From an uncultured Acidobacteriota bacterium (GTDB lineage Bacteria; Acidobacteriota; Blastocatellia; Pyrinomonadales; Pyrinomonadaceae), in contig CAWCZP010000003.1 in the NCBI GenBank assembly GCA_963800055.1, positions 218,824-282,823 on the forward strand: 64,000 bases of DNA. The letters run 5' to 3'. Of this stretch, positions 45,644-64,000 are shown piece after piece (within the stretch, counting starts at the first letter, position 1; the number at the start of each line of letters is the position of its first letter). The notes beneath the pieces were generated by a model. It saw only the letters and a list, made by a program, of their open reading frames with translations. It did no database searches and was not told the DNA's origin. Both the position numbers and the translations under genes were made by a program.

Positions 45644-45782
45644 CATTGCCAATTGCCGATTGCCAATTCGGTCATTGCCGATTGCCAATTGCCAATTGCC
45701 AATTCGAGACTCCAAAGGTGACACGGATAATGACATCAAGATATTTTTCTTTAAATTGGCAATTGGCAATTGGCAATCGGCA

Positions 45783-45784
<2 letters not shown>
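45644..45784. repeat. inverted arrays of the heptamer RATTGCC (second locus)
   Basis: About 8.5 copies of (C/A/G)ATTGCC at 45644-45705 and about 4 copies of the complement GGCAATT at 45754-45784. The right array runs into the purA start codon. Confidence 0.85.
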
Positions 45785-47532
<1,748 letters not shown>

Positions 47533-58548: not shown

Positions 58549-60472
58549 GTCGCGGTAGAGATGTCGATTGCTCGACACCCCCCGCACAGACCCGTGCGAG
58601 CGCTGCTCACGCACACGGTTCCTACCTTGGATATTTGGCGTCGAAGCGCGCAGTGGGATAGGGGTGGAGAACACAAATCTCAGGAAGCAAATGACCCAGA
58701 CGCTCCATGAAGCGTTCCCAGTTCCAGCGACTACGCTGACTGCGCCGTCGAAGCTGGTCCAGCCACATACGTAGCACCTCCTGCCGAAACGCTTCCAGCC
58801 GCGCCTGATTATCCGGAATCGCATGGTATTGGAAATACCCTCGCACCACGGACTGTAGCCATTTCACCGTCTTCACGTGCGACTCATGCCGACGCACTTT
58901 CAGTTGCGCTCTAATTTCCTTTAGCTTGGCTGTCATGCGCTGGCGCTTAGTCTGACGCCGGATGGTGAAGCGGCCCGCGTTACGTGTTGTCCCACAGATG
59001 TGGGTGAAACCTAAAAAGTCAAAGGTCTCTGGCTTTCCTAGCCCAAGTCTTTTCCGTCGTTCAGTAGCATAGCGTCCGAATTCAATCAGACGTGTCTTCT
59101 CCGGGTGCAGCTCCAGACCGAATTTGGCCAGCCGTTCCCGTAACTGCTCCAGAAACTGCTCAGCTTCTTCCCGATGCTGGAACCCTAGCACGGCGTCGTC
59201 GGCATAGCGACAGACGATTACATCGCCCTTCGCCTTCCGCCTGCGCCACTGGTGCACCCAGAGATCGAGAACGTGATGTAGATAGAGGTTAGCGAGGACT
59301 GGTGAGATCACCGATCCTTGCGGAGTCCCTTCCACCGTCTCGAACCACCGGCCTTTGTTCCATCACGCCTGCTTTCAACCATTTCTGGATGAGGCGGATG
59401 ATTCGTTTGTCTCCTACCCGATGCTCGACGAACTTATTCATCCATTCATGTCGAACTTTATCGAAAAATGAGCGGATGTCGAGATCTAAAATCCAGTTCA
59501 CTTTCTTGCGTGTGATTCCCACCCATAAAGCGTCCAGCGCATCGTGTTGACTGCGCCTTGGCCGGAACCCGTATGAGAAACCCAGAAAGTCCTCTTCCCA
59601 TATCTGATTGAGAACTCTACCCACCGCGTGCTGAACGACTTTGTCTTCCAGCGCCGCGATCCCCAATGGTCGTTGTCGGCCATCAGGTTTGGGTATCCAG
59701 GTTCTTAGTGACGGTAGCGCTCGATAAGCTCCACGATGAAGGCGACCATGAAGGTTTGCTATTCGCTCTTCCAACCCGCTTCCATATTTTTGCCACGTAA
59801 CGCCGTCTACTCCGGGAGCAGCTCCACGCTTGAGTGCGAAGAAACTGTCACGAAGCAGATCCACTGTCACGTGATGCAGCAGAGCCGTGAACCGTAACTT
59901 CTTATCCTTCCTTGCTGCTTCGCGCACATGGGTCAACTTGCTTGACCAGCTTCCCCGTTTCTGCGTCCGGTACTGGTTGAGTTGATCCATGTTCTCCTTG
60001 GTCAGCGGCCTTCCCTCCACTGCCTCCGCTGGCGGTTCCCCGCTTTTGTTCGGCTGCTTCGCAGGTACTATGCCGCTGTACGACTCCCCGTCACCGTGCA
60101 TGTGGGTCTTATCGCTTATCGCTTTCTCCCACCGGACCACTACCGTTCGTATCAGTGGTCGACAACGGGGTCTCTCGGTTCTCGCGCGTGGAGTTTCTAT
60201 GCATGCATGGGGTCTCTGACTCCGCAGGGCTGCGACGCACTCGCGCTAGCGCACGCCGCCTTGTTGCCTTCCAGCCTTTGTGACGCCGTCGGCTTCTCCC
60301 CTGATGATTGGGCCATTTCGGAGCTCTATACCCAGCCTACATATACCTCTGTCGAACGCTCGATTGCGGTCTTGCGGCCGCCCCCGCATGACTCGAGGCC
60401 AGGATGGTTCGCTACTCCTTATCCTGTATGACTCTTTCATTCACGACTCCACGCCGGTTTATCCCGACGCAC
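58549..60472 (-). mobile_element. bacterial group II intron (about 1.92 kb) with RT/maturase ORF and no endonuclease domain
   Basis: The 5' end on the minus strand is GTGCG (60472-60468). A domain V-like GAACCGTGTGCG..GCACGGGTC follows directly after the ORF stop, then a 3-nt linker. Next is a 34-nt GCAA-tetraloop hairpin with a bulged A 7 nt before a terminal ..GAC (domain VI-like), ending near 58549. Confidence 0.8.
58622..60140 (-). CDS. group II intron reverse transcriptase/maturase; one frameshift in the run at 59354-59356
   Basis: ..IPKPDGRQRPLGIAALEDKVVQ.., ..YGFRPRRSQHDAL.., ..LDLDIRSFFD.., ..EGTPQGSVISPVLANLYL.., ..VCRYADDAVLGF.. (YADD), and the X/maturase region. It ends without an HNH domain. 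Confidence 0.9.
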
Positions 60473-60769: not shown

Positions 60770-61108
60770 TTAAAAAGTTGAGGTAGATAAATGGTCGCCA
60801 ATCTCAGCAATAATAAAGGGCTTCACACCTTCGCGTCCGGTGAGACTTAGCCAGACTGCGCCGCCTTCGCGTTCTACCTCTAAACCAAAGTCAAAGAATG
60901 GACAGCATAGACGCTCAAGCGAAATGAATTCCGCAACCTGTAGTAATACGTCGGACTGATTTGGAAGTTGAAATGAGTAACCATTCGCTACTTCGCGGAC
61001 GCTTTCAACCGAGCGAAACAGTTTTTCGATTGTCGCTAAGTGTGCCTCTCGCTGATCAGGCCGGATGGCGTTCATATCACAAGCAAAAGGTGATTCTTTT
61101 TCTGTCAT
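60770..61108 (-). CDS. hypothetical protein with a vicinal Cys pair (..ERLCCPFF..)
   Basis: 112 aa; the start overlaps the ynfA stop (ATGA); Cys at ..FACDMN.. and ..LCCPFF... Confidence 0.5.
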
Positions 61109-61431
61109 GAGTTTCTAGGCCAATACATGATGATAAATACTCCCGCAAGTGCGACCGCGCCGCCAATTAGATCAAACCTATCGGGAGAGATCTTATCCAC
61201 TCGCCAGCCCCACAGGACAGAAAGAACTATAAACACGCCGCCATATGCGGCGTACACACGCCCAAAGCTGGCTGGTTGCAGCGTAGGTATGATTCCATAA
61301 AGAATCAGTATCGCGCCACCAATGAAAGCGAACCAAATCGGTTTGCCCTCACGCAGCCACAACCACATAAGATAGCCACCGCCGATCTCACAGAGACCAG
61401 CAACAACAAAATAGATTATGGATTTGACCAT
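61105..61431 (-). CDS. ynfA: YnfA family (UPF0060) small membrane protein
   Basis: 108 aa; ..[23 protein letters not shown]....[32 protein letters not shown]...PD..D.IGA...L.G... Confidence 0.8.
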
Positions 61432-61494: not shown

Positions 61495-61597
61495 TTCTCT
61501 GCGGCCCTCTGCGTATCTCCGCGTTCTCCGCGTTTAATGGCCCTTTCAACGCAGAGGTCGCAGAGATACGCAGAGATACGCAGAGGGCCGCAGAGAA
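61495..61597. repeat. CTCTGCG-word hairpin in the ynfA / merR divergent intergenic region
   Basis: TTCTCTGCGGCCCTCTGCGTATCTCCGCGTTCTCCGCG ... ACGCAGAGGTCGCAGAGATACGCAGAGATACGCAGAGGGCCGCAGAGAA. Confidence 0.8.
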
Positions 61598-61747: not shown

Positions 61748-62191
61748 ATGAACGAAGGTTTACAGATCGGCGAGGTTGCGAAGCGGGCGGGTGTAAGCAT
61801 CGACACCTTGCGTTACTACGAGAAGGTGAAGCTGCTGCCACGTGCGGGCCGTTCGACGGGTGGTTTTCGACTCTTTGCTGCCGAACACGTCGAGCGCGTC
61901 CGGTTCATTAAGCAGGCTCAGGAGTTGGGATTCTCGCTTGACGAGATTAGAGACTTGCTGGCGACGGGTGGCACAGAAGAATGTCGCAAGGTTCGCGATC
62001 TACTTAAACGCAAAATCGCTGAAATGGATGAAAGGCTGAAGTCGATGAAAGAATTTCGTCGAGTGTTAGCGAGTCATCTTTCAGCTTGCGAGAGCGAACT
62101 AAAGAAGCATCGCGATTCAACCTGCTGTCCTGTTTTGCCTTTGAACGACAAGGTGCAGGCTTCGAAGCGTAGAAGGAGCGAAGATGACTAG
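61748..62191 (+). CDS. MerR family heavy-metal-responsive transcriptional regulator
   Basis: ..LQIGEVAKRAGVSIDTLRYYEK..LLP...RS.GGFRLF....V.RV.FIK.AQ.LGFSL.EI..LL... By my count Cys is at positions 79, 114 and 126/127. Confidence 0.85.
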   Translation: MNEGLQIGEVAKRAGVSIDTLRYYEKVKLLPRAGRSTGGFRLFAAEHVERVRFIKQAQELGFSLDEIRDLLATGGTEECRKVRDLLKRKIAEMDERLKSMKEFRRVLASHLSACESELKKHRDSTCCPVLPLNDKVQASKRRRSEDD

Positions 62192-62787
62192 TCGAGGGCT
62201 TGTGGTTATTACGGTTGTAGGAGTGCTGCTGGGTTTCTTAGTCGAATCTGGTGCTCAGCCTTCCTACGATTCAAGCCCTTTGGCAAAAGAAGGATATAGC
62301 GCTGATCTAAACGAGCTTAAGAAGAGATTCAATGCCGACAAGAAGAAAGTTCGATTGCTGATGCTCTTGTCTCCGACTTGAGGCGGTTGTCTTCGGGGGG
62401 CTTCCGAAGTTCAGCGAGACGTAATGGACCAGATCAAAAACGACAAGCTGCGTTCTTATTCTGTTTGGGTGCCGATTTTAATGAGCGACGCAGAACGAGC
62501 CGTGCCGAACGCAGCAACGCGACTACCCGACAAGCGCGTCATCGCATTTCTGGGACGGCAAAGGAGAATTGGTTGAGGCATATAAAACGATCCTGCCAAC
62601 AAAGAATGCCGAGACCGGCCAATACGTAAAAGCCTGGGACGTTTACCTCGTATTCGCGCCTGGCGTCGAATGGAAAGATCAACCACCTAAGCCAACTGTT
62701 TGGATGCATCAACTTTACTCCGTCGATCCGAAGAACAGGTTTGACAGCAAGGGCCTGGCGACCGAAGTGCAAAGGCTACTCAAATAA
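62184..62787 (+). CDS. membrane-anchored thioredoxin-fold protein, candidate selenoprotein (TGA at 62379-62381 read as Sec); one frameshift at 62547-62549
   Basis: AGGAG RBS; TM anchor LVVITVVGVLLGFLV; ..KKKVRLLMLLSPT-TGA-GGCLRGASEVQRDVM.. The same frame stays open after the TGA. The C-terminal part is paralogous to 63446-64000. Confidence 0.65.
62386..62415 (+). promoter_or_regulatory. SECIS-like hairpin downstream of TGA 62379-62381
   Basis: Stem CUUCGG (62391-62396) / CCGAAG (62404-62409) with loop GGGGCUU beginning 16 nt after the UGA. Possible lower stem GUUG (62386-62389) / CAGC (62412-62415) across a small internal loop. Confidence 0.55.
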
Positions 62788-62789
62788 CT

Positions 62790-63080
62790 ATGGATTGCTG
62801 TGGCGTCGACAATATCGAGAACTCGCGAATTGATGATTTGCCGATCACGGTGGAACTTAAAGCGACTACCAATCCAATTCCGCTTTGTTACTGTTTCGGC
62901 TTTGACGAGAATTATATTCGGGAGGAGATTGCGCAGACTGGAACCACCACTGTGCCGCAACGGATTTCTCAGCTCATTCGTGAGGGCTTGTGCGCGTGTG
63001 ATGTGCTCAACCCTTCTGGAACGTGCTGCTTTGGTGCGGTAAACAGGACTGCAACAAGAATAAAGAAAGAAGTCGGTTGA
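62790..63080 (+). CDS. Cys-rich putative metal/Fe-S-binding protein (BFD- or CopZ-zinc-finger-like)
   Basis: 96 aa with 8 Cys in the pairs MDCC, CYC, CAC and TCC (..PLCYCFGF....I.EEI..TG...V...I...I..G.CACDV.NPSGTCC..). Confidence 0.5.
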   Translation: MDCCGVDNIENSRIDDLPITVELKATTNPIPLCYCFGFDENYIREEIAQTGTTTVPQRISQLIREGLCACDVLNPSGTCCFGAVNRTATRIKKEVG

Positions 63081-63087
63081 GCAAGAT

Positions 63088-63441
63088 ATGAAGATCTCAC
63101 GGAGCGCAGTGGCTAGTGGTGTGTCGGTCTTTTCGGCGTTCTTTTCAGTTCTGCCGGTTAGTTGCTGCGTGTTTCCGGTTGCTATTTCGTTTCTCGGTGC
63201 GTCAGGTCTCGCCTTCGCCTCAGCATTAATGCCCTATCGCCCCTACTTCATCGTGCTGACATTCATTTCGTTAGCAACCGCTTTCTATTTCACCTATCGT
63301 CCGCAACGAGATTGTGCGCCGAATGCGGCCTGCGCAATACCGAAAGTTCGAAAAGTGCAAGTGATCGCTTTCTGGGTGGCGACTGCTTTCGTTCTGATCC
63401 TACTGGTGTTCCCTTACCTGATCCCATTCTTGCCGCTTTAG
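63088..63441 (+). CDS. merT: mercuric-ion transport protein MerT homologue
   Basis: 117 aa. TM1 has a vicinal Cys pair (..SVLPVSCCVFPVAISFLGASG..), then ..LMPYRPYFIVLTF.., a loop Cys pair (..RDCAPNAACAIPKVR..) and ..IAFWVATAFVLILLVFPYLIPF.. These are collinear with Tn501/Tn21 MerT as I remember it. Confidence 0.8.
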   Translation: MKISRSAVASGVSVFSAFFSVLPVSCCVFPVAISFLGASGLAFASALMPYRPYFIVLTFISLATAFYFTYRPQRDCAPNAACAIPKVRKVQVIAFWVATAFVLILLVFPYLIPFLPL

Positions 63442-63445
63442 AACG

Positions 63446-64000
63446 ATGAAAAAGTTTCTAATAATCACTCTGGCAATTGCGGTGATGTTCGTGGGTCTTC
63501 TGGCATTATATCTGTACGCAGGAACCACCGTTCCGACTGGACAACAACCTCTCACCCGGCTGAATGACTCTAATTTTTCGTCACTCAAAGATGCCTTTAA
63601 CGAGTCAGCTAACTCGGTCCGCGTTATCGTAATGCTTTCTCCGACTTGACCAGTGTGTTTGCGGGGGGCCTCCGCATTTCAAAAATTATTGGAGGAACAA
63701 CACGGAAGCAGTGTGCGGGTTTTTGTAATTTGGGAACCGGTACTACCATCGGACTTGTTTGCTCCTTCGACTTCGACGCTGAGCCGAATATCTGACGCAA
63801 GAGTTTCTCAATACTGGGACAAGCCACGTGTTGTTTCTCGCTCCATGGGCGAGACGGACGATGACTCGATCGTTTGGGATATCGTCGCCGTTTATCAACC
63901 AGGAAAACTTTGGGAACAGACACCGCCTGAGCCTACTTATTCTGGCGGGCCCGTGGTCGAGGTTATTGACGAAACAAGAAACGCGATCAAACGTGAACTG
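63446..64000 (+). CDS. membrane-anchored thioredoxin-fold protein, second candidate selenoprotein (TGA at 63647-63649 read as Sec); 3' end outside the window
   Basis: TM anchor FLIITLAIAVMFVGLLALYLY; ..ANSVRVIVMLSPT-TGA-PVCLRGASAFQKLL.. The frame stays open from 63650 to the window end (117 codons) and aligns with the paralogue (..VFVIWEPVLPSD.. / ..YSVWVPILMSD..). Confidence 0.65.
63660..63676 (+). promoter_or_regulatory. SECIS-like hairpin downstream of TGA 63647-63649
   Basis: Stem UGCGG (63660-63664) / CCGCA (63672-63676) with loop GGGGCCU beginning 16 nt after the UGA, the same spacing as at the first locus. Confidence 0.5.

Follow-up and report, generated by a model that had tools for sequence, protein, structure and literature searches.

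This locus raises the question whether two in-frame TGA codons, each followed by a short hairpin, are read as selenocysteine (Sec). The two codons lie in paralogous genes of a metal-related cluster, in a stretch of 64,000 nucleotides (nt) from an uncultured bacterium of the Pyrinomonadaceae (Acidobacteriota; contig CAWCZP010000003.1, positions 218,824 to 282,823). The whole stretch is called the window below. Comparison with homologous sequences makes it highly probable that the hairpins function as bacterial SECIS (selenocysteine insertion sequence) elements and belong to a selenoprotein family that lacks annotation. In the following, locus 1 and locus 2 denote the sites in paralogue 1 and paralogue 2, and positions are counted from the U of the UGA as position 1.

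Both hairpins had been proposed in the initial annotation, and their sequences and spacing were found as described there. Positions 62379-62409 read TGA GGCGGTTGT CTTCGG GGGGCTT CCGAAG (locus 1), positions 63647-63676 read TGA CCAGTGTGTT TGCGG GGGGCCT CCGCA (locus 2). In the stems as drawn, 15 nt lie between UGA and loop, and the loop starts with the 16th nt. The compensatory change claimed for the stems could also be traced: pair 15-29 is U-A in locus 1 (codons CTT/GAA) and G-C in locus 2 (TTG/GCA). Pair 13-31, C-G in locus 1, is lost in locus 2 (U/U). RNAfold lengthens both stems by G.U and G-C pairs. Hairpin 1 then comprises 7 bp (13-19/25-31) with the loop GGGCU, and its folding energy is -7.4 kcal/mol for nt 13-31, -8.1 kcal/mol for nt 10-34 and -13.0 kcal/mol for nt 4-48. 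Hairpin 2 comprises 7 bp (14-20/24-30) with the loop GGC (-9.7 kcal/mol for the bare hairpin, -13.3 kcal/mol for nt 4-48). The identical spacing was brought forward as support as well. It is present in both loci, but these are paralogues (27% protein identity). Thus, the equal spacing is inherited and does not count as two independent observations.

With the TGA read through, both genes encode an N-terminal hydrophobic helix, followed by VRLLMLLSPT-U-GGC-LRGASE in paralogue 1 and VRVIVMLSPT-U-PVC-LRGASA in paralogue 2. Homologues were collected on DNA level from GTDB species genomes (80 loci, found by the C-terminal pattern [KPT]AWD[VI]YL[LVA][FY], which is neutral to Sec or cysteine (Cys)), from metagenomes (80 loci) and from 11 loci of specific Cys forms. 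A protein search yielded full-length CxxC homologues and, for the most part, fragments of 120 aa beginning just past the TGA, the signature of gene callers ending at a Sec codon. The motif SPT-U-xx-C aligns with SPT-C-xx-C of P0020, P0031, P0033-35 and others. In the genome set, 66 unique TGA sites were found vs 7 TGY (Cys) sites; for all sources, the numbers were 136 unique TGA vs 18 TGY 60-mers at the first Cys position of SPT-[U/C]-x-x-C. The TGA of paralogue 2 is kept in the orthologues of L001, L097 and L101. TGA forms were detected in at least eight phyla; the taxa include Acidobacteriota, Terriglobia, Eisenbacteria, Krumholzibacteriota, Chloroflexota/Dehalococcoidia, Gemmatimonadales (Gemmatimonadota), Poribacteria and Baltobacteraceae; those nearest to the window belong to the Pyrinomonadaceae (Acidobacteriota). 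The Cys forms are interspersed among the Sec forms, which indicates several independent switches.

The DNA scans reached one subfamily, and the Sec to Cys ratio of about 9:1 is restricted to it. A profile search with the Cys forms gave 2,783 representatives at 50% clustering (E <= 1e-3), and CxxC was present in 118 of the 147 top matches, in a ranking that penalises Sec forms split by gene callers. A dominance of Sec in the whole family was considered and dropped, since the protein profile matches are mostly CxxC. Reassignment of UGA in the genetic code was likewise rejected, because the UGA aligns specifically with the redox Cys.

Published rules for bacterial SECIS (bSECIS) elements ask for an upper stem of 4-16 bp and a loop of 3-9 nt with a G at one of its first two positions (pattern G[G|U]), set 16-37 nt from the UGA, and for a minimum free energy (MFE) of <= -7.5 kcal/mol (PMC13188914). 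In a simple implementation of these rules both window loci pass, with 7-bp stems and a spacing of 16 (loop GGGCU) and 17 (loop GGC). Hence, the loops stand in the bacterial distance range, as had been stated. For the MFE, both loci pass over nt 4-48, and the bare hairpin of locus 1 (-7.4 kcal/mol) is borderline. The rules were passed by 103 of the 136 Sec homologues (91 at spacing 16-17) vs 7 of the 18 Cys forms. As controls from the same loci, 141 of 799 TGA stops and 254 of 1400 random coding positions passed (18% each). Covariance model R1 scored loci 1 and 2 with 60.2 and 54.4 bits, the next match in the window reaching 13.3 bits; the model is dominated by primary sequence (Cys forms 10-44 bits) and was not used to separate Sec from Cys.

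Several results weigh against functional SECIS elements. The 60-nt folds were not significant in comparison with dinucleotide shuffles (z = 0.32 for locus 1, -0.91 for locus 2). With these z-scores and a control pass rate of 18%, a single sequence proves little, and the comparison of homologues is the real support. No match to an Rfam SECIS model was obtained, either at the gathering threshold for the whole window or at E <= 10 for 62100-64000. The Rfam SECIS models are gene- and clade-specific. A tRNA-Sec was found neither in the 64-kb window nor in 49 related loci, and SelA, SelB and SelD are absent among the 20 large open reading frames (ORFs) of the window. A tblastn search for SelD with an E. 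coli query had no matches, which is a weak negative. Users of Sec are known among the Acidobacteriota (PMC12013277). Three Cys forms, described below, retain a hairpin at the same place. Furthermore, locus 1 is frameshifted in the window: an insertion of 1 nt near 62541-62543, one base more than in L097, L101 and L107, breaks the frame of paralogue 1, whose C-terminal part shows 92% identity to P0001. This is probably an assembly error.

The frameshift would also suit true stops at both TGAs, in which case each locus would be a decayed pseudogene or a pair of small genes, with hairpins that are incidental or serve as terminator-like elements; gene callers indeed fragment every Sec form. We regard this as highly improbable. 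In some 135 unique sequences, which stem from many phyla, frame and protein similarity run on past the TGA. Cys homologues of full length can be aligned over the site, and the modelled thioredoxin domain requires both halves, the CxxC helix and the following strands. Two other genes of the window, purA and the reverse transcriptase (RT) gene of a group II intron, show frameshift-like splits, too. With three such cases, assembly indels are likelier than true decay.

The stem lies wholly within the codons of the conserved active-site motif, and the hairpin could merely be a by-product of the peptide C-L-R-G-A-S-E and a local codon bias; the single-sequence z-scores are in line with this. The codon choice points elsewhere. 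In 77 unique CLRGASE[VI] Sec sequences, Leu+4 is encoded by CTT and Arg+5 by CGG without exception (77/77 each), and Gly+6 by GGG, Ser+8 by TCC and Glu+9 by GAA in 76/77 each. At other positions of the 87-nt stretch analysed, Leu, Arg, Ser and Gly are spread over 4-6 codons with an entropy of 1.3-2.35 bits, and those frozen in the stem are in the minority (CTT 3-10 of ~70, GGG 1/48, TCC 2/67). Two deviations occur in the stem, TCT and GAG, and both give G.U pairs. Such pairs exist in the sense RNA only, which argues against a palindrome on DNA level. Shuffling of synonymous codons over nt 10-39 resulted in a mean z of -1.55 for the Sec forms, with 39% at p <= 0.05, and of -0.53 for the Cys forms, with none at p <= 0.05. 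The codon freeze largely refutes a by-product; paired changes, which alter amino acids yet preserve the pairing, speak against it as well, and little credence is left for it.

The pairing itself was examined with 128 Sec sites, which align without gaps. RNAalifold, with no structure supplied, returned the pairs 15-29 to 20-24 and the loop 21-23, with double changes in four of the six pairs. For the 8-bp helix, 86.6% of the cells are paired vs 30-66% with the partners slid by 1-3 nt. Double changes were counted in 70 cells vs 17.6 +/- 3.5 in shuffles (0/500), and six of the eight pairs covary; this statistic is not tree-aware, and the cell counts overstate independent events as many Sec sequences are closely related, which adds to the points against a SECIS given above.

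Different stem versions belong to different clades. The commonest stem-loop, CUUCGGGG-GGC-CUCCGAAG, encodes CLRGASE. In CLGGASQ (CUUGGGGG-GGC-CUCCCAAG) the change of Arg to Gly is paired with that of Glu to Gln, and G16-C28 replaces C16-G28. The pair C14-G30 is found in CTWGASE (L087; CUUGGGG-GGC-CUCCGAG). CRQGASA is encoded by GGCAGGG-GGC-CUCUGCC, and the stem of the C[RW]QGAS clade is GGCAGGG/CCUCUGCC. Other loops occur with CRRGVSE of the Poribacteria (UCGGGG-GGU-CUCCGA, loop GGU) and CQRGARV of the Eisenbacteria (ACGCGG-CGC-CCGUGU, loop CGC). The helix is displaced by one position in Gemmatimonadales (GUUCGG-GGUCU-CCGAAC) and Terriglobia (CACGG-CGUGA-CCGUG). L132 (1591) and L142 (3109) carry a one-codon insertion (U-PA-C-VV-RGASE) and an intact hairpin, UUCGGGG-GGC-CUCCGAA, 3 nt farther from the UGA; hence, the spacing tolerates small shifts. 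Hairpin 2 is identical across four orthologues, and the synonymous sites flanking it differ. The claim of selection on the RNA on top of the protein code is supported by the conserved TGA, the RNAalifold helix, the covariation and the frozen synonymous stem sites with variable flanks. As judged from these alignments, the predicted SECIS overlaps with the C-L-R-G-A-S-E codons, and its pairing limits the codon choice and some amino-acid changes.

A hairpin kept in Cys homologues had been named beforehand as evidence against a SECIS. It was detected in part of them. L169 (8 bp, -12.8 kcal/mol), L162 and L164 (6 bp) retain a hairpin at the same place, so that the helix is not strictly tied to the TGA. 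In ten distant Cys forms (L013, L053, L055, L061, L063, L068, L077, L166, L168 and L170) the helix is absent at the site, and in L161 and L089/L109 it is weakened. L161 (886) shares 89% identity with the Sec form L081, and the sole difference in the hairpin, CGG to CGT, breaks pair 18-26 (-4.6 vs -10.7 kcal/mol). The lineage of L089 (3208) and L109 (86), with 69% identity to the nearest Sec form and 62% to L161, carries CGT plus GCG (-2.7 kcal/mol). Each of these two Cys lineages is nearest to a Sec form, and the shared change of CGG to CGT may reflect convergence, the stem having decayed in both once Sec was lost. In L162 the change of GGG to GGA turns the loop base G21 into A; G21 is likewise replaced by A in L169. 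Thus, all three CLRGASE Cys lineages have a substitution at a site which is invariant or nearly so in the 77 Sec forms (CGG to CGT twice, GGG to GGA). On sequence grounds this pattern looks like a relic SECIS decaying after loss of Sec, which fits better than a by-product of the peptide.

The retained helices of at least 6 bp in the Cys lineages L169, L162 and L164, together with the empty searches for Sec machinery in the window and the flanking loci, are what would be expected if the RNA structure was selected for a role without SelB. It could be a site of ribosome pausing for co-translational targeting to the membrane, contribute to mRNA stability or stimulate UGA read-through independently of SelB. 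Such a role is unlikely. Of the 103 Sec forms that pass, 91 have their loop 16-17 nt from the UGA, within all published SECIS constraints. Most Cys forms have a lost or weakened helix, two of them by the same synonymous change of CGG to CGT, and of the three forms keeping the stem two (L162 and L169) have lost G21 to A. Furthermore, the alignment of a UGA with a redox Cys is a classic hallmark of selenoproteins.

In the model established for fdhF of E. coli, the complex of SelB, GTP and Sec-tRNA(Sec) binds the loop of the SECIS. By analogy, the element proposed here would act from inside the coding region, starting 9-10 nt past the in-frame UGA, the codon which stands in for the first Cys of CxxC. 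With the ribosome at the UGA, the stem of 7-8 bp would expose its small apical loop, rich in G (G21, G22), at a distance of about 17 nt downstream. This loop would be bound by SelB-GTP-Sec-tRNA(Sec), Sec would be inserted against the competition of RF2, and a full-length protein of about 200 aa would result.

Compared with the bacterial SECIS of the fdhF type and the consensus of Zhang and Gladyshev (PMC13188914), the element has in common that it is a stem-loop inside the reading frame and follows the Sec UGA immediately, with the loop 16-17 nt past the UGA and an MFE of <= -7.5 kcal/mol for nt 4-48. In contrast to the fdhF type, it is shorter, a single helix of 7-8 bp with a spacing close to the lower limit, and neither a bulged U nor a conserved lower helix was detected. 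A further likeness is given by the minimal SECIS of selenoproteins described recently, e.g. that of SaoC, a perfect 7-bp stem with the loop GGU (Haft and Gwadz, bioRxiv 10.1101/2022.07.06.499078). Both have such a stem and a three-nucleotide loop containing G shortly past the UGA, and GGU is also the loop of the Poribacteria clade of the present family. SaoC differs in protein family, stem sequence and hosts, which are Firmicutes and not, as here, mostly soil Acidobacteriota and relatives.

The protein fold was modelled with AlphaFold for the Cys homologue P0020 (alignment of 13 sequences). The mean predicted local distance difference test (pLDDT) score was 84.6, with about 97 over residues 60-216. 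The model shows a long N-terminal helix followed by a thioredoxin fold, with the CxxC residues 85-88 at the start of helix 86-100. The best Foldseek matches in the PDB were extracytoplasmic thiol:disulfide oxidoreductases, namely a PDI-like protein of Bacteroides, DsbE of M. tuberculosis, ResA, TlpA, CcmG, DipZ-C and Sco (E ~1e-5, 9-19% identity, template modelling (TM) score up to 0.68, normalised to target length). According to the model, Sec would take the place that is exposed and nucleophilic in a UxxC motif for redox reactions or metal binding, like in several known selenoproteins. The product is a membrane-anchored relative of TlpA and ResA with a thioredoxin fold and is probably located outside the cytoplasm.

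Known selenoproteins with thioredoxin fold and UxxC motif (thiol:disulfide interchange protein PF13098, TlpA-like cd02966, Redoxin PF08534, SaoT) have Sec at the N-terminal, nucleophilic position of CxxC at the start of helix 1 and an N-terminal membrane anchor in common with the present proteins. These differ by a motif of their own, SPT-U-x-x-C-[LQR]-x-G-A, and by the lack of a Pfam or NCBIfam model. For paralogues 1 and 2, no family of Pfam-A or NCBIfam 20.0 was found at E <= 0.1, except YtxJ (0.083, paralogue 2); among the models without a match are Thioredoxin_2/_8, Redoxin and AhpC-TSA of Pfam and the selenoprotein models of NCBIfam. An inventory of 2026 lists 119 prokaryotic selenoprotein families, each tied to a model of the Pfam/NCBIfam type (PMC13188914), and none of these 119 corresponds to the present family. 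Full-text literature searches gave nothing on an SPT-U-x-x-C family. In public gene calls the Sec forms are cut in two at the TGA, and the named members of the cluster are 'hypothetical protein' fragments, e.g. HSS21227.1. Cut in this way, the family escapes both annotation pipelines and surveys of selenoproteomes. As a bacterial SECIS in a selenoprotein with thioredoxin fold and UxxC motif, the element would be of a known kind, and the family itself appears to be new within it.

The two paralogues belong to a compact cluster on the + strand (61748-64000), together with a MerR-like regulator, a CopZ-N-like protein and MerT (Table 1).

Table 1 Features of the metal-related cluster and of the two predicted Sec sites (positions in the window)
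Feature	Coordinates	Strand	Remarks
MerR-family metal-responsive regulator	61748..62191	+	First gene of the cluster; overlaps the start of paralogue 1
Paralogue 1, membrane-anchored thioredoxin-fold gene, SPT-U-GGC-LRGASE	62184..62787	+	Translation through TGA 62379
In-frame UGA, predicted Sec codon of paralogue 1	62379..62381	+	Aligns with the first Cys of CxxC in P0020, P0031, P0035
SECIS-like hairpin 1, CUUCGGG-GGGCU-UCCGAAG	62391..62409	+	nt 13-31; RNAfold, bSECIS criteria
CopZ-N-terminal-like Cys-rich protein (CC motif), putative Fe-S or metal chaperone	62790..63080	+	NCBIfam NF047645
MerT-family metal-ion transporter	63088..63441	+	Pfam MerT 2.1e-19
Paralogue 2, same family, SPT-U-PVC-LRGASA	63446..64000	+	Translation through TGA 63647
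In-frame UGA, predicted Sec codon of paralogue 2	63647..63649	+	Same aligned position as in paralogue 1
SECIS-like hairpin 2, UGCGGGG-GGC-CUCCGCA	63660..63676	+	nt 14-30; RNAfold, bSECIS criteria

The regulator matches Pfam MerR_1 (1.4e-18) and MerR-DNA-bind (1.4e-17); with the NCBIfam MerR model TIGR02051 it reaches 110 bits, under the cut-off of 150.85. MerT scores 70.1 bits with Pfam (gathering score 32.9) and 75.9 bits with NCBIfam MerT, under the cut-off of 150. Both scores are below the equivalog cut-offs of NCBIfam. The CopZ-N-like protein matches NF047645 with 9.5e-18, under the cut-off, and weakly the (seleno)protein family NF045877. Paralogue 2 extends past the end of the window; judged by the L001 orthologue, which ends with ...RQQLDMIKK, about 6-9 codons are absent.

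The window copy of the CopZ-N-like gene encodes 96 aa, without the zf_CopZ domain of the 157-aa version of L001 (L001 3483-3956). The short form is apparently also present in L107 and thus looks like a natural variant, not damage. For both the CopZ-N-like and the MerT family selenoprotein forms are known (weak matches to NF045877 and NF045683), and the window copies use Cys (MDCC..., CC).

The cluster with two paralogues is shared by L001, L097 and L101. In L001 (2456-5750) the order is MerR, paralogue 1, zf_CopZ/CopZ-N protein, MerT, paralogue 2 and an IS200-like Y1 transposase. Among the neighbours of Sec loci (fetched flanks, n=144, many of the contigs being short) MerR-like proteins were counted 41 times, MerT 32 times and CopZ-N-like proteins 31 times, in several phyla. 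MerA is absent from the window and from the downstream region of the syntenic L001, and MerP is absent from the cluster. MerR, MerT, MerP and MerA, which together define a canonical mer operon, are therefore not all present, and the module is mer-like, but not a canonical mer operon. The likeness to the periplasmic components of the mer operon, MerP with MerT, consists in an exported protein with a paired Cys/Sec motif beside MerT and a MerR-type regulator. MerP has a ferredoxin-like HMA fold in contrast to the thioredoxin fold found here, and the present cluster is without MerA and MerP. An HMA (MerP-like) domain is fused to some of the Cys homologues. In L013 (6139, 7171) and L170 (2046, 3078) such an HMA-fused Cys form (CPMCVGGAS, without hairpin) is followed by a TGA paralogue about 1 kb downstream. 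Hence, one operon holds both Cys and Sec versions.

From fold and gene context, the most plausible role of the product is to bind or pass on a soft metal, Hg(II) for instance, or to maintain the cysteines of the transporter in reduced form. A wider proposal is made tentatively, as we find it possible but somewhat doubtful in its entirety. The SPT-U-x-x-C proteins would form an uncatalogued, widespread selenoprotein family, overwhelmingly with Sec and seldom with Cys in the sampled subfamily, within a MerA-less soft-metal module of soil bacteria with MerR-type, MerT and CopZ-N-like proteins. Hg(II) or a metal like it would be captured on the outer side of the membrane by a selenolate, in place of the thiolates of MerP, and the SECIS would have steered residues of the active-site helix (the pair Arg/Glu to Gly/Gln).

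The family would add a broadly distributed selenoprotein, and many of the phyla with Sec forms are soil lineages with poorly charted use of selenium. The association with MerR and MerT offers a concrete, testable case for Sec in bacterial handling of heavy metals. The protein and RNA codes overlap unusually cleanly, with frozen synonymous sites, exceptions by wobble only, paired amino-acid substitutions and decay after the switch from Sec to Cys. Furthermore, the locus could be used to train and benchmark SECIS predictors, which now fail on many families.

Some minor observations were made outside the two loci. The purA gene is split into 45646-46143 and 46127-47116 (Pfam positions 1-106 and 110-416). 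A group II intron is located just upstream of the metal cluster (58622-60435, - strand), with a match to Rfam group-II-D1D4-6 at 60210-60435 (143.8 bits) and an intron-encoded RT, which is split into 59289-60140 and 58622-59335 (- strand; RVT_1 positions 1-114 and 118-204). Between a YnfA/UPF0060 gene (61105-61431, - strand) and the merR-like gene lies an inverted repeat of about 100 nt (61495-61597), with 30-nt arms, 97% complementary and 43 nt apart. It occurs as a single copy in the window and may be a terminator or an element resembling a miniature inverted-repeat transposable element (MITE). An ORF of 112 aa (60770-61108, - strand) with a CC motif and no Pfam match adjoins the YnfA-like gene, upstream of the metal cluster and divergent from it; it may encode another metal-related protein.

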